Below, piece after piece: positions 15,621-55,863 of a stretch of 64,000 nucleotides of DNA. Within the stretch, counting starts at the first letter, position 1. Each line of letters starts with the position of its first letter. Location: the NCBI GenBank assembly GCA_937900875.1, contig CALCGD010000268.1:4334-68333 (forward strand). The letters run 5' to 3'. The translations under genes and the position numbers were made by a program. The stretch comes from an uncultured Flavobacteriales bacterium (GTDB lineage Bacteria; Bacteroidota; Bacteroidia; UBA10329). The notes under the pieces were generated by a model. That model saw only the letters and a list, made by a program, of their open reading frames with translations. It was not told the DNA's origin and searched no databases.

Positions 15621-15660
15621 AAGTGCTCTCATAAGGCACGGATTATTACTTTTGCACCAT

Positions 15661-15731
15661 GGTCGAGTGGCCGAGCGGTTAGGCAGTGGTCTGCAAAACC
15701 ATCTACAGCGGTTCAAATCCGCTCTCGACCT
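15661..15731 (+). tRNA. tRNA-Cys (anticodon GCA); CCA not encoded
   Basis: Manual fold: acceptor GGTCGAG/CTCGACC, D-arm GCC-GAGCGGTTA-GGC, anticodon stem GTGGT/ACCAT with loop CTGCAAA, short variable loop, T-arm AGCGG-TTCAAAT-CCGCT, discriminator U. Confidence 0.85.
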
Positions 15732-15734
15732 CAT

Positions 15735-15775
15735 AAAACCCCACCCGTTAAGGGTGGGGTTTTGTATTTTTGATA
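15735..15775 (+). terminator. Rho-independent terminator after tRNA-Cys
   Basis: CCCCACCC-GTTAA-GGGTGGGG hairpin followed by TTTTGTATTTTT. Confidence 0.8.
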
Positions 15776-15798
15776 GGAGTTATCTAATTAAATTCATC

Positions 15799-16590
15799 AT
15801 GAAACACATCGTTATTGTAATCGGATTAACGCTTTTTGTTCAAGCGTCCTACGCTCAGTATGGTGATTATTCTGTGCGGGTAGAAGTGGAAGGAAATGGC
15901 TTCGCACATTTTACCGAGGTTTATTTTGAAGATGATGGATGGAACCCACCTACAACGATTCCTACATATGGTTGGGATGGCTGTTGTGATGCGTTACTTA
16001 ACATGGGTAATCCTTGGCAGCCACATATTTTCACTCAAGTTGTTGCTCCACCAGCCCCAACAAATAATCACCGAATTTCAATTAACGGATTGCCACATGT
16101 GTTTGAGCATACCGAAGTTCCATTAGGGTTCTTACCTGGAGAATTGGCCCAATATACCTTCACATTTGAAGAACTTTATACTCTGCCAATAGGTATGTCG
16201 GTAGAGTTGGAGGACCACACCCAAAATGTAATTCAAGACCTTCTTGTAGATTCTGTCTATACGACTTGGGGTGCAGTTTCTGATGACGAGGAGCGATTTA
16301 CCTTGCATTTTTATCCGGAAAACGTAACCTCAACCTTTAGTCAAGACTCAAGAACTCGAACGCTAACATCTTGGTCAAACGAAGAAATGTTGGTAATAAG
16401 CGGAATTGAAACCCTTGGGCTGAAAATGGCAAAACTCACCGACATGTTTGGAAGAGTAGTATGGGAAGGAGCAGTTCCTGAAGGAGAAAAAGTTTTTTCT
16501 ATGAGTAGAAATCAGATAGCCTCTGGTGTATACATTTTTGAGTTAATTACTGATAAAACGAAACACCAATCGTTGAAAATTAGTATTTAA
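15799..16590 (+). CDS. Secreted protein with T9SS type-A C-terminal sorting domain. The ORF-track start at 15652 is an artefact that overlaps the tRNA.
   Basis: In-frame Met at 15799 gives signal peptide MKHIVIVIGLTLFVQASYAQ. The C-terminus (...GVYIFELITDKTKHQSLKISI) fits the Por_Secre_tail pattern. Confidence 0.75.
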   Translation: MKHIVIVIGLTLFVQASYAQYGDYSVRVEVEGNGFAHFTEVYFEDDGWNPPTTIPTYGWDGCCDALLNMGNPWQPHIFTQVVAPPAPTNNHRISINGLPHVFEHTEVPLGFLPGELAQYTFTFEELYTLPIGMSVELEDHTQNVIQDLLVDSVYTTWGAVSDDEERFTLHFYPENVTSTFSQDSRTRTLTSWSNEEMLVISGIETLGLKMAKLTDMFGRVVWEGAVPEGEKVFSMSRNQIASGVYIFELITDKTKHQSLKISI

Positions 16591-17965: not shown

Positions 17966-18370
17966 ATGTCAGTACAGGTGAACGACAGAAAACGTGCCCA
18001 GCAATTTTACAATGAAACCCGTGAATGGCTATCTGAAATAAATTCATTGGTTATTGATTTAGTGTTCTTTCAACGGATATTAGATATCTACGGCCTTAAA
18101 GTGTCTGACCCAGTCGAAAAACGAGATATTGAGGGACTCAAAAGCACCCTACTTTCTTTTGTCGAGCATCGAGTAGAAAATCAGAAGCTGAGAAATAAGG
18201 CTCACGAAGAATATTTGCAAAAAGTGATAGAGGATCGTGTGCTTTTAAAAGATAAAGACCTACCGTTTAAGCATAAAGATTTGGCTGGGGAAATGCAAGA
18301 CCTACGGCAAGGTGGTGGTAGACTAAAAAACGAGCTTTACGAGAAGGTTGAGCAACTAAAACAATTTTAA
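17966..18370 (+). CDS. Hypothetical cytoplasmic helical protein
   Basis: 134-aa ORF with coding-like composition. Its stop overlaps the next ORF start by 1 nt. Confidence 0.5.
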   Translation: MSVQVNDRKRAQQFYNETREWLSEINSLVIDLVFFQRILDIYGLKVSDPVEKRDIEGLKSTLLSFVEHRVENQKLRNKAHEEYLQKVIEDRVLLKDKDLPFKHKDLAGEMQDLRQGGGRLKNELYEKVEQLKQF

Positions 18371-18822
18371 TGCTAAGATGCCAATCGTCAATTGTACTCT
18401 TACTAATAACGGTACTTATTTCAGTTAACATTTCGGGGTTTGCTCAGCGTAGACCCAAGGACAAGATTCTTCACGCCAAAGTTTTTGTTGTAACAATGGA
18501 GCAACAAGAAATCAAAAAGAAAAAAGAGCTGCCACCATTTGAAGATGAGCTTACGTTTAAGTCAAATAAGTTCACCTCAAAACACATGCGCCACCCAGAC
18601 ACTGGAGGGTTCCAGCAAGGCGAGTATGCTATTTCAAAAAAGGAAGAACTGTTAGGTGAAATGGTGTACCATTTTGAGGCCGTAAACTCAAATTCCAAAG
18701 GAATGTCTTTAAAATGGGAGGGGCGGGTATTCGGTAATCAGATTGAGGGTACGGCCATCGTATCAAAAAATGGAAAAATTAAACAAGAATTTACTTTTTC
18801 CGGTACGCTCAAGATTAAATAA
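18370..18822 (+). CDS. Hypothetical secreted protein
   Basis: 150 aa; signal peptide (IVLLLITVLISVNISGFAQ); translationally coupled to the upstream ORF. Confidence 0.5.
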   Translation: MLRCQSSIVLLLITVLISVNISGFAQRRPKDKILHAKVFVVTMEQQEIKKKKELPPFEDELTFKSNKFTSKHMRHPDTGGFQQGEYAISKKEELLGEMVYHFEAVNSNSKGMSLKWEGRVFGNQIEGTAIVSKNGKIKQEFTFSGTLKIK

Positions 18823-18828
18823 CCGCAG

Positions 18829-19284
18829 TTATTTAACTACCTCGGCTCTGAACAACTGGTAGGGTACAGCATTCATTTCGCCATCTTGGTTTATCTGTAG
18901 GATACCTTTAAAAGTCACGACTTGATCGGTGCCAAAACGTGGGAATTTACCAGTAGGTAAAAGCTCAACAACGGTTTCTGGTCCTGCGTTGCCGCAGAAG
19001 AAACAATTTGCAAACGGATTGGCAGAAACCATGTACATCCCGAGTTCTATGTCTACCGGAATTACATACCCCTTCACCTTTATTTCCTTACCATTTAGGG
19101 CAAGTAAGTCTTTCGAGAATTCGGGAGGCTTGATGTTTACTTCAAATCCAAATGTTTCAGAATATTGGCGATGGAATTTAACTTGTGAAAAAGAACTCCA
19201 ACTAACAGTGGTTTGCGCAAATGTGCCAGAAATGAAGAAACAGGTAAGGGCAATGCTCAGCATTATTTTCGTTAGGAATTTCAT
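18829..19284 (-). CDS. Small secreted protein, paralog 1, with conserved CFFCGNAGPE motif (possibly DUF3299-like; family recalled, not verified)
   Basis: Signal peptide; motifs GYVIPVD and VSANPFANCFFCGNAGPETVVEL shared with the adjacent paralog. It is the last gene of the ABC operon. Confidence 0.65.
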   Translation of the reverse strand: MKFLTKIMLSIALTCFFISGTFAQTTVSWSSFSQVKFHRQYSETFGFEVNIKPPEFSKDLLALNGKEIKVKGYVIPVDIELGMYMVSANPFANCFFCGNAGPETVVELLPTGKFPRFGTDQVVTFKGILQINQDGEMNAVPYQLFRAEVVK

Positions 19285-19718
19285 TTCAGCAAAGCACCAG
19301 TTAATATATAATTACAATGTTCTAGGTCGTCCCAGTTTAGCTTTAAACGCCCTTTAAAAGTCGCTATTTCATCTGTTTTGAAGGCTTCTTTTACTCCCTT
19401 AGGAAATTGGAGTTCCATTACACTTTCTGGGCCAGCATTTCCGCAGAAAAAACAAGACGCAAACGGATTGGCAGAAAGCACATAGTAACCAGACTCTACG
19501 TCTACTGGAATTACATATCCTTCAATTACAATTAAAGCACTATCTAAACCAAGTACTTCTTTGCTGTAAGCTGGATACCAAACGGTTTCATCATATTTTG
19601 GGTAGTACTTTTCTTCCCAGGTAACTTTTGCCAAAAGAGCCCAGTCAATTGGTTTATGCTGGGCCTGTACTAGTAGTCCTGCCAAAACAAAAAGAGAGGA
19701 AATCAACACTTTATTCAT
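19281..19718 (-). CDS. Small secreted protein, paralog 2, with conserved CFFCGNAGPE motif
   Basis: Signal peptide; GYVIPVD...LSANPFASCFFCGNAGPESVMEL. It has 4-nt and 8-nt overlaps with its neighbours. Confidence 0.65.
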   Translation of the reverse strand: MNKVLISSLFVLAGLLVQAQHKPIDWALLAKVTWEEKYYPKYDETVWYPAYSKEVLGLDSALIVIEGYVIPVDVESGYYVLSANPFASCFFCGNAGPESVMELQFPKGVKEAFKTDEIATFKGRLKLNWDDLEHCNYILTGALLK

Positions 19719-20934
19719 TTCTCAAAATGGTTGAGATGTCTGTTTTGTAGGCTCTTAGGGCAGGTATCAAGGCAGCCACAACGCCTACAAAAAGGGTTAT
19801 TGGTAGCAACCAAATTTCTATTTCGCTTATTGCTACTTGCGTTATAGAAAAGTGAAATTGCTCTTCGCCAAATGTTGAAAGAGTCATAACCGCAATGCGC
19901 CCTAGAATAATGCCAAACGCGTATCCCACTAAGCATAAAAGCAGACTTTCTTGTAATACGAGAGCAAAGAGTTTTGTCGGAGACGCTCCTAATGAACGCA
20001 TCAGCGCAAGTTCATATTTCCTTTCTTTTAAAGAATTAAGGAGGGAAATAAACACACTTAATGCTGCAATACACATGATGAGGAATCCAATTGCTTGAAG
20101 AGTTGAAAACCCAATTCCCATCAAATCGTAAAGTCGGTTTATCTCAATGGCTGGTAATGCTGCCTGCATAGATGTCTTTTCGTTGATAAAACGAGGCACT
20201 TGCATTATGCCCATTGGGCTCTTAAATTTCACCAGTAGGGCGGTAATTTGCTGATCATCTTCATAATGATTGGATTCCTCATCAGCATGGCCGTGTTGGT
20301 GTTCATCTGATTCTTCTGGATGATGATGAATATCCCAAACACTTGTTGTGGAAGTGAGAATTAAGCGGTCTGCCACGGTACCGGTTTCATTCAGGATTCC
20401 AACCACGGTATAATGTGCTTCTTCATGTGCCTCTCCTTCGGTTTCTAAACCATGAGTTCCGTGGAAGTGGCTGCCTATACTCATCTCAAGACTCTTCGCT
20501 ACGGTTTTACCAAGCACCACTTCCATGCTTCCAGACCAGCTGGTTCCGGATGAAAAAGTTGCCCCAAAATGACGGAGATAAACTGAATCTGTACCAACAA
20601 TCCGATAGCCACCATAACTATCTCCATAAGAGAGTGGAATACTGTATTTAACAAGTGGATGCGTGATTATTCTTCGGGCCTCAGAAACGGGAATATTACC
20701 GGTTGGATTGTCTATTTGATAAACAGCCGAGAGAATGAGCTGAAGGGGGCTGCCTTTTGCCCCAACAACCATGTCGATTCCTCGGATATCTCGATTAAAA
20801 CGGTCGTTGAGTTGATTGCTTACAGTAACGATAAAGGACACCATCCCGATACCGATAGCTAGTAGCATAACGCTCAGTGCAGTTGTAAGGAAATGCTCCT
20901 TCAGATTTGCGTATGCAAGGCCCAACATCCTCAT
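19711..20934 (-). CDS. ABC transporter permease, FtsX/MacB-type, with His-rich periplasmic insertions
   Basis: TM1 followed by a large periplasmic domain, then three C-terminal TM helices with FtsX-like sequence. Two His clusters: GSHFHGTHGLETEGEAHEEAHY and DIHHHPEESDEHQHGHADEESNHYEDD. Confidence 0.85.
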   Translation of the reverse strand: MRMLGLAYANLKEHFLTTALSVMLLAIGIGMVSFIVTVSNQLNDRFNRDIRGIDMVVGAKGSPLQLILSAVYQIDNPTGNIPVSEARRIITHPLVKYSIPLSYGDSYGGYRIVGTDSVYLRHFGATFSSGTSWSGSMEVVLGKTVAKSLEMSIGSHFHGTHGLETEGEAHEEAHYTVVGILNETGTVADRLILTSTTSVWDIHHHPEESDEHQHGHADEESNHYEDDQQITALLVKFKSPMGIMQVPRFINEKTSMQAALPAIEINRLYDLMGIGFSTLQAIGFLIMCIAALSVFISLLNSLKERKYELALMRSLGASPTKLFALVLQESLLLCLVGYAFGIILGRIAVMTLSTFGEEQFHFSITQVAISEIEIWLLPITLFVGVVAALIPALRAYKTDISTILRNE

Positions 20935-21557
20935 AGCGTTATCGAATTTTGAAAACGGTTTTTTAACCGCTGATCATGGGTTACCACAATTAAAGCTGCT
21001 CCGTGACCCGTCACTGTCCTCTGGAGAAGGTTTGCAACCAAAGCAGCATTTTCATCATCTAAGGCAGAAGTTGGCTCATCTGCCAGCACCACTTTTGGGT
21101 TGGTTACCAAAGCCCTGGCAATGCTCGCTCTCTGGCGCTCCCCAATACTTAAATCGCTTGGCTTCGCGTGCATCCTGTGCGTAATTCCCAACTCATTAAG
21201 AAGACTTTCCGCCAACTCATTATTAGCTGATAAACCCGCTAAAGAACGTGCAAGACTTAGGTTTTGAAACACGGTGATAGAACGTACAAACTGCGCTGAT
21301 TGAAAAACGATTCCAATGTTTTCTCCACGAAACTTATCTCTTTTGGAGCCATTAAGTTCCACCAGATTGACTCCGGAAATTTCAACCAATCCATCAGCAG
21401 GATTCATTAGTCCGGCCAACAAATGTAATAGTGTTGTTTTGCCAGACCCTGACTTACCAAGAACGAGTAAAGATTGGCCCTCGGTTATGTTCAGATTTGG
21501 AAAACTGAAAGTGGCACCTTGCGGATAATTGAATGAAAGGTCTTTGGTACTGAGCAT
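20931..21557 (-). CDS. ABC transporter ATP-binding protein (MacB/LolD-like)
   Basis: Walker A (GKSGSGKTTLL), signature (LSIGERQRASIARAL) and Walker B (LADEPTSALD). Confidence 0.92.
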   Translation of the reverse strand: MLSTKDLSFNYPQGATFSFPNLNITEGQSLLVLGKSGSGKTTLLHLLAGLMNPADGLVEISGVNLVELNGSKRDKFRGENIGIVFQSAQFVRSITVFQNLSLARSLAGLSANNELAESLLNELGITHRMHAKPSDLSIGERQRASIARALVTNPKVVLADEPTSALDDENAALVANLLQRTVTGHGAALIVVTHDQRLKNRFQNSITL

Positions 21558-21623
21558 TTTCTTATATAATGCAAAACTAAGGTGTTGAGCGGAGGTTCGT
21601 ACTTTTGACCGACATTCGTAGCT

Positions 21624-22607
21624 ATGCTTGAAAGACCAAGAAGAAATCGTGCCTCTGAGACCATTAGAAGTATGGTTCGCGAAACAAGACTAGATCTTGC
21701 AAACCTCATTTTCCCACTTTTTGTGGTAGACGGCACGGGAAAGAAAGAGCCGATTGGCGCCTTACCCGGAATTTTTCGATTTTCAGAAGATTACGTGGTA
21801 AAGGAGGTTGAGGAATGTATGAATTTGGGACTGAGGTCTTTCGTGCTTTTTCCAGCCGTTGAAGACTCTCTTAAAGACAAAACGGCAACCTATAGCTACA
21901 GCGAAAAGAATTTTTACTTGCGCATTATTTCAAGACTTAAGAAGGAGTTTCCGGAATCTTGTCTTATGAGCGATGTAGCTATGGACCCATATAGCTCTGA
22001 CGGGCATGATGGACTGGTGGAAAACGGCAGAATTCTGAATGACGAAACCCTCGGCATTCTGGGCAAAATGGCCGTGGCGCAAGCCGAAGCCGGAATAGAT
22101 ATCATAGGACCATCAGACATGATGGACGGTCGCGTACAGCACATTCGCGAAGAACTGGACGATGAAGACTTCGAAAATGTGGCTATAATGAGCTATTGCG
22201 CCAAATATGCTAGCGCATACTACGGGCCATTTAGAGAAGCTCTGGCAAGCGCTCCAAAATCTGGAGATAAGAAAACTTATCAGATGGACCCAGCAAATAA
22301 GTGGGAAGCTGTTAGAGAAGGAGAATTAGATGTGGCAGAAGGAGCAGATTTTCTCATGGTAAAGCCAGCTCTTTTGTACTTGGATGTCATTCATCTATTG
22401 AAAGAAAAATTTGAGCTTCCAATTGCCGCTTATAATGTGAGTGGCGAATATGCAATGCTTAAAGCAGCGGCAGCCAATGGTTGGTTAAATTACGATCAGG
22501 CTATGCCGGAAATGCTACTGAGCTTTAAGCGAGCTGGAGCAACCTCCATTCTTACTTATGCCGCAAAAGAATACGCACAAATGTTAAAAGAAGGCCGCCT
22601 TGCTTAA
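21624..22607 (+). CDS. hemB: Porphobilinogen synthase (delta-aminolevulinate dehydratase)
   Basis: N-terminus RPRRNR...; full-length ALAD architecture and conserved active-site region. Confidence 0.92.
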   Translation: MLERPRRNRASETIRSMVRETRLDLANLIFPLFVVDGTGKKEPIGALPGIFRFSEDYVVKEVEECMNLGLRSFVLFPAVEDSLKDKTATYSYSEKNFYLRIISRLKKEFPESCLMSDVAMDPYSSDGHDGLVENGRILNDETLGILGKMAVAQAEAGIDIIGPSDMMDGRVQHIREELDDEDFENVAIMSYCAKYASAYYGPFREALASAPKSGDKKTYQMDPANKWEAVREGELDVAEGADFLMVKPALLYLDVIHLLKEKFELPIAAYNVSGEYAMLKAAAANGWLNYDQAMPEMLLSFKRAGATSILTYAAKEYAQMLKEGRLA

Positions 22608-42658: not shown

Positions 42659-42791
42659 AAATTTTTTTCTGTTCCCTTTTTTAATTCCTGCATTCTATTG
42701 ATAGGACACTGAGAATTCCGGCCGGATATCAGTCCTGAAACACTACGCCAAATGGCGTGGCTAAGGATTGTATTAACCAAACTCTACTATC

Positions 42792-44405
42792 ATGGCTGGA
42801 CAGAAAGAATCTTCAAGACAAAAAATGATCGGGATGATGTATCTCGTTCTTACCGCGCTGCTTGCGCTCAACATTTCGAAAGATATTTTGGATGCATTTG
42901 TAATTGTAAACGAAAGCTTAGCGGCAAGCTCAGAAACTACTGCTAAAAAATTGGATGCTCTGTACTCCGATTTCGATTTGGCAAAGGCCGTTGACCCGAA
43001 AAAAGTCGACAACTATTGGGCACGATCTCGCGAAGCTAGAAGACGAGCTTCCGAACTCAACACGTTTATCGACAGTGTTAAAACCACACTCATATCAAAA
43101 ACAGAAAAAATAGACCGTTCCGTGGCCGATACACTTTCGATGGAGCTCATTGCAAAAAAGGACGATTACGATACGCCCACTAACCTTCTTATTGGCAGTA
43201 AAGAAGACGGATCGAGCGGCTTGGCTAGTAAACTCAAAAACAAAATAGTGGAGTATCAAGACGCAATGAGGGAGTTGTTAAATGAGCAAGACCAAACCTA
43301 TTTCAACGACCGAATTAATGTTGCAGATAGAAAACTAGTCGACAATACATCGACCTGGGAAACCAACAATTTTTACAACACACCATTGGTTGCGTCATTA
43401 GTGATACTCTCCAAGTTACAGATGGATGTGGCGGATGTTGAGTATGATGTGGTGAACAAACTTTACCGTTCGTTTAATCAGAAAGATTTCTTTTTTGACA
43501 CCATTGCCGCAACCGTCTTGCCTCAAAGTAATTACGTTTTGCTAGGGGAGGAATACTCTTCAGACATTATTGTAGCTGCTTATAGCACCACACGGTCACC
43601 AAAAATCAGAGTAGGAAAACTGAATAAAGAGGGTAACGAATTAACCTCGTTGGAAGACACAGTAGCTACCGAAAACGGAAAAGGCCTTTTCAGAAGACGC
43701 GCAACCGCTGAGGGAATTTTCAGCTATCAAGGAATGGTGGATTTGATAGATAGCGAAGGAGAAACTCAGAGCTACCCTTTTCAATCGGAATACATCGTTG
43801 CAAGACCATCACTGGTGGTTTCAGCGACTCAAATGAATGTGCTTTATAAGGGAATAGAAAACCCAGTTGCTATTTCTGTTCCAGGCGTACCGGCAGAAAA
43901 AATTAGGGCAACTATTACCGGGGGGAACACACTGAAAAAAGTAGGTTCTAATTCATACATGGTTCAAATGACACCAAGCTCTCCAAACCAAGTTTTTGTA
44001 AATGTTTCCGCTACAATGGCTGATGGATCAACCAGAGATATGGGTCGAATGGAGTTTCGAGCTAAGCGCTTACCAAAACCATTTTCTGCCATTAATGGGA
44101 AGGAAGGAGCAATCAGAATGTCGCCAAATGAAACCTGCGCTCAACTAGGGCTTTCTGCCAAATACGATTCAAACTTTGCCTTCAATCTATATTGCAACGT
44201 GACCAAATACCGTGTCTTGATAACTGACAACAAAGGTCAAATTGTATTGAATACTGGTTATGATGGCTCTCGCTTTGATGCAAGTTTGAAGAGCAAGCTG
44301 TGTGCGGTAAAGCCAGGTTACAGAATCACTTTCGAAAACATAAAAGCCGTTGGAAGCGATGAGGTGGAACATGAGTTGGCCCCAGTCATAATCATTGTAA
44401 AGTAG
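42792..44405 (+). CDS. gldM: GldM/PorM-family protein (T9SS / gliding motility), stand-alone copy
   Basis: N-terminus MAGQKESSRQKMIGMMYLVLTALLALNISKDILDAF matches the GldM N-terminal TM/signature; about 537 aa, typical of GldM. Confidence 0.8.
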   Translation: MAGQKESSRQKMIGMMYLVLTALLALNISKDILDAFVIVNESLAASSETTAKKLDALYSDFDLAKAVDPKKVDNYWARSREARRRASELNTFIDSVKTTLISKTEKIDRSVADTLSMELIAKKDDYDTPTNLLIGSKEDGSSGLASKLKNKIVEYQDAMRELLNEQDQTYFNDRINVADRKLVDNTSTWETNNFYNTPLVASLVILSKLQMDVADVEYDVVNKLYRSFNQKDFFFDTIAATVLPQSNYVLLGEEYSSDIIVAAYSTTRSPKIRVGKLNKEGNELTSLEDTVATENGKGLFRRRATAEGIFSYQGMVDLIDSEGETQSYPFQSEYIVARPSLVVSATQMNVLYKGIENPVAISVPGVPAEKIRATITGGNTLKKVGSNSYMVQMTPSSPNQVFVNVSATMADGSTRDMGRMEFRAKRLPKPFSAINGKEGAIRMSPNETCAQLGLSAKYDSNFAFNLYCNVTKYRVLITDNKGQIVLNTGYDGSRFDASLKSKLCAVKPGYRITFENIKAVGSDEVEHELAPVIIIVK

Positions 44406-55786: not shown

Positions 55787-55863
55787 TGGTGGGCCCACCA
55801 GGGCTTGAACCTGGGACCCCTTGATTATGAGTCAAGTGCTCTAACCAGCTGAGCTATAGGCCC
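55787..55863 (-). tRNA. tRNA with CAU anticodon (elongator Met or lysidine-modified Ile2); CCA encoded
   Basis: Manual fold: acceptor GGGCCTA/TGGGCCC (one G-U pair), D-arm GCTC-AGCTGGTTA-GAGC, anticodon loop CTCATAA, T-arm CCAGG-TTCAAGC-CCTGG, discriminator A, then CCA. Confidence 0.85.

Follow-up and report, generated by a model that had tools for sequence, protein, structure and literature searches.

The zinc-regulated Zrg / PA4063-PA4066 ABC system of Vibrio and Pseudomonas, itself poorly understood, has a Bacteroidota version not described before: as judged from its sequence, a four-gene operon in the window (the whole 64,000-nt stretch of DNA analysed). In alignments each gene of the operon has a homolog in the ATPase-permease-DUF3299 core of PA4063-PA4066 / ZrgABCDE, and the operon most likely encodes a self-contained type VII ABC module that handles zinc or cobalt in the periplasm without ZrgA. 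Its open reading frames were:

20931-21557, minus strand: ABC ATPase, 208 aa, counterpart of PA4064 / ZrgC
19711-20934, minus strand: MacB/FtsX-type permease, 407 aa, counterpart of PA4065 / ZrgB
19281-19718, minus strand: DUF3299-like OB-fold periplasmic protein, proximal paralog, 145 aa
18829-19284, minus strand: DUF3299-like OB-fold periplasmic protein, distal paralog, 151 aa

The ATPase and permease genes overlapped by 4 nt (ATGA), the permease and proximal paralog genes by 8 nt (ATGAATAA) and the two paralog genes by 4 nt (ATGA). No promoter-like or terminator-like site above chance was found inside the four-gene unit, which fits the single, coupled operon proposed in the first-pass annotation. 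Genes called independently on a metagenome contig from ENA, which has an identical permease, yielded the same four products. The nearest species genomes were uncultured Flavobacteriales/Bacteroidia MAGs, with ~75-80% protein identity. Three elements flanked the operon:

21558-21623, unstranded: 66-bp intergenic region shared with a divergent hemB, its sequence kept in close relatives
21572-21579, minus strand: Bacteroidota-type -7-like box TAGTTTTG, 14 nt upstream of the ATPase ATG
18815-18836, unstranded: perfect 9-bp inverted repeat with a 4-nt loop (TTAAATAAC tgcg GTTATTTAA; RNA fold -13.6 kcal/mol, z=-2.1)

The -7 consensus of Bacteroidota reads TAnnTTTG, and the region of the -7-like box is presumed to be the operon promoter. 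A palindromic operator or Zur box was sought in the 66 bp upstream of the operon and none was found; a palindrome present in other loci was absent from the window, and no Fur-family or Zur gene was detected in its 64,000 nt. We know of no Bacteroidota Zur motif usable for scanning. The inverted repeat covered the stop codons of both the operon and a convergent gene (18370-18822) and might act weakly as a terminator in both directions, a signal that was only suggestive because the sequence is AT-rich.

The ATPase contained an ABC_tran domain (Pfam, E=6e-32) and was 36% identical to P. aeruginosa PA4064 (BLASTP, E=4e-40). The permease scored over the Pfam gathering thresholds for both MacB_PCD (E=4e-13) and FtsX (E=1e-15), and aligned with PA4065 along its full length (29% identity, 414 columns, E=8e-52, BLASTP). 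As seen by Foldseek, its AF2 model (pLDDT 71.9) resembled MacB (5gko, E=1.5e-15), LolCDE, YtrEF, HrtBA and FtsEX. The mechanism is presumably mechanotransmission, as in the type VII ABC machines MacB, LolCDE, FtsEX and HrtBA. However, MacB has an N-terminal fused NBD, whereas the ATPase here was a separate gene; no MacA/TolC, LolA or EnvC-type partner was present, unlike in MacB, LolCDE and FtsEX, and a MacA-type adaptor was not conserved in 80 Bacteroidota loci. By sequence, the permease periplasmic domain could not be aligned with those members of these families whose structures are solved.

The closest NCBIfam models for the ATPase/permease pair were LolC/E, LolD, FtsE and DevA/C (LolD, FtsE and DevA for the ATPase). 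This would suit a generic MacB/Lol/FtsX-type module unrelated to metal, for example one exporting a peptide or envelope component or controlling a periplasmic enzyme, with the OB-fold proteins as adaptors and the His loop as incidental low complexity; the His-rich insert described below was indeed dispensable in many orthologs. We regard such a module as improbable. Every ATPase score fell under its cut-off (LolD model TIGR02211, 178 vs 308), and the permease scored far below those of the lolCE model TIGR02212 (48.4 vs 362) and the MacB equivalog NF007826 (20.4 bits vs 966). The solved MacB/Lol proteins could be aligned with the permease by sequence in the C-terminal TM part only, but PA4065 along its whole length. 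The invariant His and Asp residues of the permease and the Zur control of homologous systems also argue for metal. A metal-related role, as first suggested, is the best reading.

The three invariant His lay in two His clusters of the permease periplasmic domain, both of which had been pointed out in the first-pass annotation and were found:

20413-20469, minus strand: His cluster 1, permease residues 156-174, HFHGTHGLETEGEAHEEAH (HFHGTHG...EAHEEAH), holding H161 and H170
20452-20454, minus strand: codon of invariant H161, in His cluster 1
20425-20427, minus strand: codon of invariant H170, in His cluster 1
20266-20328, minus strand: His/Asp/Glu-rich insert, permease residues 203-223, HHHPEESDEHQHGHADEESNH, beginning at invariant H203
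20326-20328, minus strand: codon of invariant H203, start of the insert

Residues 156-223 contained 12 His among 68 positions, compared with 4 among the 339 elsewhere (Fisher p=2e-7). In the AF2 model, His cluster 1 fell in a low-confidence loop (residues 161-172) and residues 204-226 had pLDDT <50; the insert is predicted to be disordered.

When 69 Bacteroidota and 66 canonical permeases were compared, just 26 columns were common to them at >=95%. H161, H170, H203, D105 and D189 were invariant in all 135 (69/69 and 66/66). These five residues (window numbering) were defined in the present analysis as the His3/Asp2 set. By this comparison the set, overlooked in the first-pass annotation, is the truly conserved feature of the permease, and the poly-His is a variable insert. 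The insert occupied one fixed site, directly after H203 (the third invariant His), and ranged from 0 to ~115 residues, the largest being that of locus L043 (~115 residues; 47 His in the protein); its number of His varied as well. Poly-His had been called unusual for FtsX/MacB proteins; this held for FtsX/MacB generally but not within the subfamily, where the insert was recurrent and length-variable.

PA4063/ZrgA (Pfam PF10986, DUF2796), the His-rich periplasmic zinc-binding protein of Zrg systems, was absent here. With PA4063 and the ZrgA-like protein of Verticiella as tblastn queries, neither the window nor any of the 80 loci gave a significant homolog, and the sole weak, compositional match was the permease's own His insert; the neighbouring ORFs had no Pfam match. 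At the place of the His/Asp/Glu-rich insert of the window permease, PA4065 has a 28-residue His-poor insert. A His-poor insert of 28 residues was present in 58/58 canonical loci with ZrgA, which are mostly close Pseudomonas-like relatives and therefore not independent observations. A ZrgA-less Pseudoalteromonas permease carried an (HE)n insert (DHEHEHEHEH...) at the same site. A strict rule, by which His-rich inserts would occur in all loci without ZrgA and in no others, failed because many ZrgA-less permeases have short inserts: a short His-poor insert without ZrgA was seen in many Bacteroidota orthologs and likewise in canonical locus L146.

The two small proteins were 42% identical (E=4e-37), and both contained GYVIPVD and SANPFA(S/N)CFFCGNAGPE. 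The loops were located at:

19425-19475, minus strand: CFFCGNAGPE loop, proximal paralog
18976-19026, minus strand: CFFCGNAGPE loop, distal paralog

Both loop Cys were invariant in 29 aligned relatives, so the earlier description of paralogs with an invariant Cys pair stood, though "periplasmic partner" suits these proteins better than "secreted". The CFFCG core was present in 103 of 104 copies (76 loci), and a CFFCG-type protein was confirmed by tblastn in at least 588 of the 599 matching stretches listed from GTDB species genomes. In a rough NJ tree, the distal paralog fell into a second paralog class, which also occurred in Owenweeksia/Schleiferiaceae-type loci with swapped gene order.

The family DUF3299, named in the first-pass annotation, was the right one, though distant. 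The distal paralog matched it weakly (Pfam PF11736, 12.9 bits, E=0.12, under the gathering threshold of 22 bits), the proximal one had no Pfam DUF3299 match, and 20 of the 29 relatives matched at E<=1 (best 1.1e-4). Alignment of the small-protein family with canonical DUF3299 by hhalign gave 97.7% probability (E=1.7e-12), with the single invariant Cys of each family in the same column. The fold agreed, the small proteins being OB-like as in 4HSP. The invariant DUF3299 loop G-A-C-I-H-x-P-P-P-P-x-N-Q (G-A-C-I-H-V-P-P-P-P in the PA4066-type motif) was not kept and was replaced here by S-C-F-F-C-G-x-A-G-P-E; only its Cys was retained, and its His column was Phe. A weak PA4066 tblastn match at 42659-42856 proved to be noise.

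An OB-fold protein with a reactive Cys loop beside an ABC ATPase might alternatively serve haem or tetrapyrrole handling or thiol-redox chemistry, like CcmE/CcmAB or the MacB-fold haem exporter HrtBA. A CcmE-containing complex and HrtBA were among the fold matches, hemB was the divergent neighbour in the window, and in one canonical locus a thioredoxin gene followed the DUF3299 gene. However, the CcmE match was weak (rank 46, E=0.05), hemB adjacency was restricted to close relatives (~9 loci), no redox or haem genes were conserved nearby, and canonical DUF3299 has Cys-x-His, not CxxC. We consider this reading highly improbable, and nothing in the analysis supported the "thiol-reactive substrate" or sensing role suggested at first.

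The gene neighbourhood proved to be conserved across Bacteroidota, the order ATPase-permease-DUF3299(-DUF3299) being found in nearly all of the 80 loci. Cultured carriers include Emticicia fluvialis BHSR1, Emticicia sp. BO119, Leadbetterella sp. DM7, Marinigracilibium pacificum KN852 and Mangrovivirga halotolerans M17. All-against-all clustering of 876 ORFs from these loci revealed no other conserved neighbour (TonB receptor, MFP, OMP, ZnuA or regulator) beyond the three core families; recurrent lineage-specific neighbours had CoA-binding or hydrolase domains, or no Pfam match.

The module is not an orphan, as "uncharacterised" had implied, since the homologous PA4063-PA4066 / ZrgABCDE systems are partly characterised (PMC4542158, PMC9817125). 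PA4063-PA4066 of P. aeruginosa shared the gene order, with the Pfam labels ZrgA, ABC_tran, MacB_PCD+FtsX and DUF3299; PA4064 is the ATPase, PA4065 the MacB-type permease and PA4066 the DUF3299 protein (PDB 4HSP). Unlike in PA4063-PA4066, the DUF3299 gene was duplicated here. In both Pseudomonas and Vibrio the module is part of the Zur (zinc-starvation) regulon; regulation of the window operon by metal is putative. PA4063-66 has a Zur site, and loss of znuA induces it 10-45-fold (PMC4542158); Zn deficiency induces zrgE (DUF3299) 76-fold (PMC9817125). Vibrio ZrgABCDE comprises ZrgA (DUF2796), the ABC pair ZrgB/ZrgC, ZrgD (DUF2607) and ZrgE (DUF3299). As judged from its published description, the ABC pair with a MacB-like permease and DUF3299 are common to both systems (PMC9820375, PMC9817125), but counterparts of neither ZrgA nor ZrgD were found here. 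The zrgABC genes and ZrgA are required for growth under Zn limitation, and deletion of zrgE gives no phenotype (PMC9820375); in PA4066 crystals Zn binding was not evident (PMC11481552). In Verticiella, a Fur-family regulator lay directly downstream of the DUF3299 gene. A lineage-4 island of Vibrio vulnificus contains an ABC permease, an ATPase and two tandem DUF3299 genes (PMC12777771), the same content as here by its annotation table, but its proteins are longer (~235-240 aa).

The same machine could act outward, expelling metal, a metal-chelate or a metallophore complex from the cell envelope without helping acquisition, the His triad and loop then binding metal for removal. In line with this, PA4065 mutants accumulate cobalt and intracellular pyochelin, export of a pyochelin-cobalt complex has been proposed for PA4064/65, and the MacB fold is not known outside outward-acting or periplasm-acting machines (PMC11481552). 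On the other hand, pyochelin is made by Pseudomonas, the 80 loci had no conserved genes for a membrane-fusion protein, an outer-membrane channel or metallophore synthesis beside the module, and in Vibrio the system helps cells to grow when Zn is limiting (PMC9820375). An outward role is, in our judgement, rather unlikely.

In our preferred reading, for which we hold the case to be evenly balanced, the operon represents the Zrg / PA4064-PA4066 module as it occurs in Bacteroidota, and serves to acquire or traffic zinc (or cobalt) when metal is scarce. The machine would be a split type VII (MacB-fold) ABC, with separate genes for the ATPase and a 4-TM permease and with DUF3299 OB-fold periplasmic partners. 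The invariant residues point to metal being handled at the pump's own outer domain, where a putative site would consist of H161, H170 and H203, perhaps joined by D105 and D189. The disordered insert after H203 might be a low-affinity capture antenna, taking over in cis the task of the His-rich ZrgA/PA4063, which in Proteobacteria acts in trans. By hydrolysing ATP, the ATPase dimer in the cytoplasm would open and close the periplasmic site through mechanotransmission, and the two OB-fold partners would dock there to give or accept metal via their invariant Cys-x-x-Cys loop.

Several points weigh against this reading: no Zur or Fur gene or operator was found near the operon, many ZrgA-less orthologs have short His-poor inserts, Zn binding was not evident in PA4066 crystals, and zrgE deletion gives no phenotype. 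Moreover, type VII ABC machines are not known to pass substrates across the inner membrane, and no import function is known for the MacB fold. We propose tentatively, as a possibility still short of a probable one, that the His3/Asp2 set is a real metal site and that ATP-driven mechanotransmission passes Zn (or Co) among three elements, in a self-contained, ZrgA-independent manner: the disordered His-rich antenna, the His triad and, on one or two OB-fold partners, the Cys-x-x-Cys loop.

In two pathogens, zinc starvation strongly induces Zrg / PA4063-PA4066, whose mechanism is disputed, between zinc import with ZrgA as binding protein and cobalt-pyochelin export. The Bacteroidota variant is a natural experiment, in which the ATPase, permease and DUF3299 were kept, ZrgA was dropped and a His-rich loop was often placed on the permease itself. 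Five ligand-type residues never varied across two phyla, turning a vague "putative zinc transporter" into specific targets: H161, H170, H203, D105, D189 and the DUF3299 Cys loop. If true, the proposed transfer would be the first ion-handling mechanism for an ABC fold without a transmembrane substrate path, and would settle the import-versus-export dispute on Zrg / PA4063-66.

The operon on the minus strand comprised four overlapping ORFs:

20931-21557, minus strand: operon ORF 1, ABC ATPase of 208 aa (ORF and Pfam ABC_tran)
19711-20934, minus strand: operon ORF 2, permease of 407 aa (ORF and Pfam MacB_PCD plus FtsX)
19281-19718, minus strand: operon ORF 3, small protein of 145 aa (ORF)
18829-19284, minus strand: operon ORF 4, small protein of 151 aa (ORF)

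The ORFs overlapped by 4, 8 and 4 nt in the sequence (junctions ATGA, ATGAATAA and ATGA), and consensus scans within the four-gene unit detected no promoter- or terminator-like sites above shuffled expectation, in keeping with the single unit proposed by the first-pass annotation. An identical permease was found on an unrelated ENA metagenome contig, where gene calls yielded the same four products.

The Pfam domains of the ATPase and permease were all above gathering scores. The permease modelled by AF2 (pLDDT 71.9) had a type VII ABC architecture, and Foldseek matched it to MacB, LolCDE, YtrEF, HrtBA, FtsEX and BceAB. A MacB/Lol-like function unrelated to metal is a rival reading. NCBIfam matches of the two proteins to LolC/E, LolD, FtsE, DevA/C and MacB were all sub-threshold, and sequence-profile alignment of the permease to solved members covered the C-terminal membrane part only. 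The ATPase was 36% identical to PA4064 of Pseudomonas aeruginosa, and the permease 29% identical to PA4065 over all 414 columns, periplasmic domain included. Permease residues 58-80 (GAKGSPLQLILSAVYQIDNPTGN; 20695-20763 of the window) were among the most conserved segments of the family, with G58, L68, T78 and N80 common to Proteobacteria; residues 63-78, most of this segment, had pLDDT below 50.

The small proteins were paralogs, as first proposed (42% identity, E=4e-37). Neither had a significant Pfam match (151-aa protein against DUF3299, E=0.12; 145-aa protein, no DUF3299 match), but the DUF3299 assignment proposed in the first-pass annotation was right. DUF3299 was the NCBI name of some relatives, 20 of 29 relatives matched it at E<=1, and the family profile aligned with the canonical DUF3299 profile at 97.7% probability (E=1.7e-12); thus, by sequence comparison, both proteins belong to this family. 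Canonical DUF3299 has one invariant Cys, in G-A-C-I-H-V-P-P-P-P, and in the profile alignment it matched the first of the two Cys in S-C-F-F-C-G-x-A-G-P-E; where canonical members have His, the CFFCG-type proteins have Phe, and their second Cys is new. Two DUF3299 copies were present in 28/76 loci, and a rough NJ tree points to two ancient classes of paralog, with gene order swapped between lineages. One comparison locus (L024, 5989-7454) carried three tandem OB-like paralogs without an adjoining ATPase or permease: the first retained CFFCGQAGPE, the second had a degenerate GFGCGTGSDP and the third lacked the Cys loop. Orphan copies of the OB-like protein also occurred in loci L057 and L074.

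A scan for the motif P[FY][AST][SN]CFFCG across GTDB, each species being represented by one genome, gave at least 599 matching stretches; of the 599 listed, tblastn confirmed 588 as relatives. The best 80 loci among these listed matches formed the comparison set; 78 were titled Bacteroidota (Flavobacteriales, Cytophagales, Saprospiraceae), the exceptions being titled Comamonadaceae and Cyanobium. Conservation of the neighbourhood across Bacteroidota was borne out, as the order ATPase-permease-DUF3299 was found in almost all of the 80. No other conserved gene family was detected at the site in this set, the remaining neighbours being lineage-specific housekeeping genes.

The module resembled the P. 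aeruginosa PA4063-PA4066 locus, which encodes a ZrgA-family protein, an ABC ATPase, a MacB_PCD/FtsX permease and, as its last gene (PA4066), DUF3299. PA4063-PA4066 and Vibrio zrgABCDE are both under Zur control, and zinc limitation induces them strongly (PMC4542158, PMC9817125). ZrgA/PA4063 is a zinc-binding His-rich protein, required in Vibrio (PMC9820375, PMC8561739); ZrgE/PA4066 (DUF3299) shows no evident Zn binding in the literature. Transport direction is disputed there. Outward transport of metal or a chelate, as proposed for Pseudomonas, is a rival reading of the present module too; pyochelin-cobalt export was argued from the MacB fold of the pump (PMC11481552).

The His clusters noted in the permease were present: 12 of its 16 His fell in residues 156-223 (Fisher p=2e-7). 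H161, H170 and H203 were invariant in 69 orthologous permeases; when 66 canonical permeases, most drawn from a metagenome scan, were added, these three plus D105 and D189 were invariant in 135/135, among only 26 columns shared at 95% or more. After W200-x-x-H203 the 69 orthologs carried a His/Asp/Glu-rich insert ranging from almost nothing to ~115 residues, and many did without it; in the AF2 model this loop was predicted to be disordered (pLDDT below 50). A Schleiferiaceae ortholog (L043, 4142-5554) had 47 His in 491 residues, its ~115-residue insert consisting of HD/HH repeats, including two copies of TCNHPDH(Q/K)H.

No ZrgA homolog was found in the window or the Bacteroidota loci. All 58 canonical loci with ZrgA had a 28-residue His-poor insert, and a Pseudoalteromonas locus without ZrgA carried DHEHEHEHEHEHEH... 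at exactly that site. The correlation of insert His-richness with ZrgA absence is only suggestive, because the ZrgA-containing loci were closely interrelated and several ZrgA-less permeases had short inserts. On the best-supported reading, the operon encodes a self-contained Zrg-type module that does without ZrgA. The invariant His/Asp set of the periplasmic domain would be the binding site for a transition metal, zinc being the most likely and cobalt a possible one; the disordered loop would act as a built-in capture antenna, perhaps substituting in cis for ZrgA in trans; the ATPase would power a conformational change from the cytoplasmic side; and the OB-fold partners may exchange metal via the Cys loop.

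Searches of the window turned up neither an operator nor a regulator, and the palindrome TGCAA-N5-TTGCA is absent from it. Across the 165 loci collected for comparison this palindrome occurred seven times. Six of these sites overlapped the presumed -33 region, ~30-110 nt upstream of the ATPase gene of the module; they belonged to Emticicia-type loci and to one further MAG of the Bacteroidota:

L018, 3355-3369: upstream TGCAA-N5-TTGCA site
L036, 3959-3973: upstream site
L039, 3913-3927: upstream site
L055, 3144-3158: upstream site
L065, 83-97: upstream site
L066, 3934-3948: upstream site

The palindrome is a candidate operator of a repressor. Directly after the DUF3299 gene, a Fur-family regulator was located in Verticiella (Burkholderiales; L083, 5074-5583) and a thioredoxin in the canonical proteobacterial locus of Lentisalinibacter (L084, 5058-5390).

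The upstream end of the operon was separated by 66 bp from divergent hemB (porphobilinogen synthase, Pfam ALAD; 21624-22607). Haem or thiol chemistry is a further rival; the hemB-operon adjacency was confined to close relatives. The active-site stretch of hemB, DVAMDPYSSDGHDG, was Asp-rich and not of the Cys-rich zinc-binding version, so we read the enzyme as probably zinc-independent. Downstream, the stop codons of the operon and of a convergent gene were 6 nt apart:

18815-18836: perfect 9-bp inverted repeat with a 4-nt loop, covering both convergent genes' stop codons

This repeat may be a weak bidirectional terminator. Two small convergent genes (17966-18822; 134 and 150 aa, signal-like N-terminus) matched no Pfam or NCBIfam family; the pair adjoined the operon only in the closest relatives (~10 loci) and probably lies outside the module. 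Elsewhere in the window, tRNA-Met was located at 55787-55863 and tRNA-Cys(GCA) at 15661-15732, inside the 5' end of a listed ORF (15652-16590, TTG start), whose true start is therefore further downstream, probably at MKHIVIVIG...

The first interpretation held up in part: the DUF3299 assignment stood and a metal link remains likely. The terms "secreted" and "thiol-reactive or sensing" did not hold up, nor did "uncharacterised", since the module's counterparts are the described PA4063-PA4066 and Vibrio zrgABCDE systems. It is a Bacteroidota variant of a known Zrg-type system, not a new category. In the literature found on DUF3299 and Zrg-type systems, neither a Bacteroidota member nor the CFFCG loop nor an invariant His triad is described, which makes this form a newly described variant. 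Its main use is in probing how the zinc-starvation machine works, for which it offers exact target residues and a naturally ZrgA-less arrangement.
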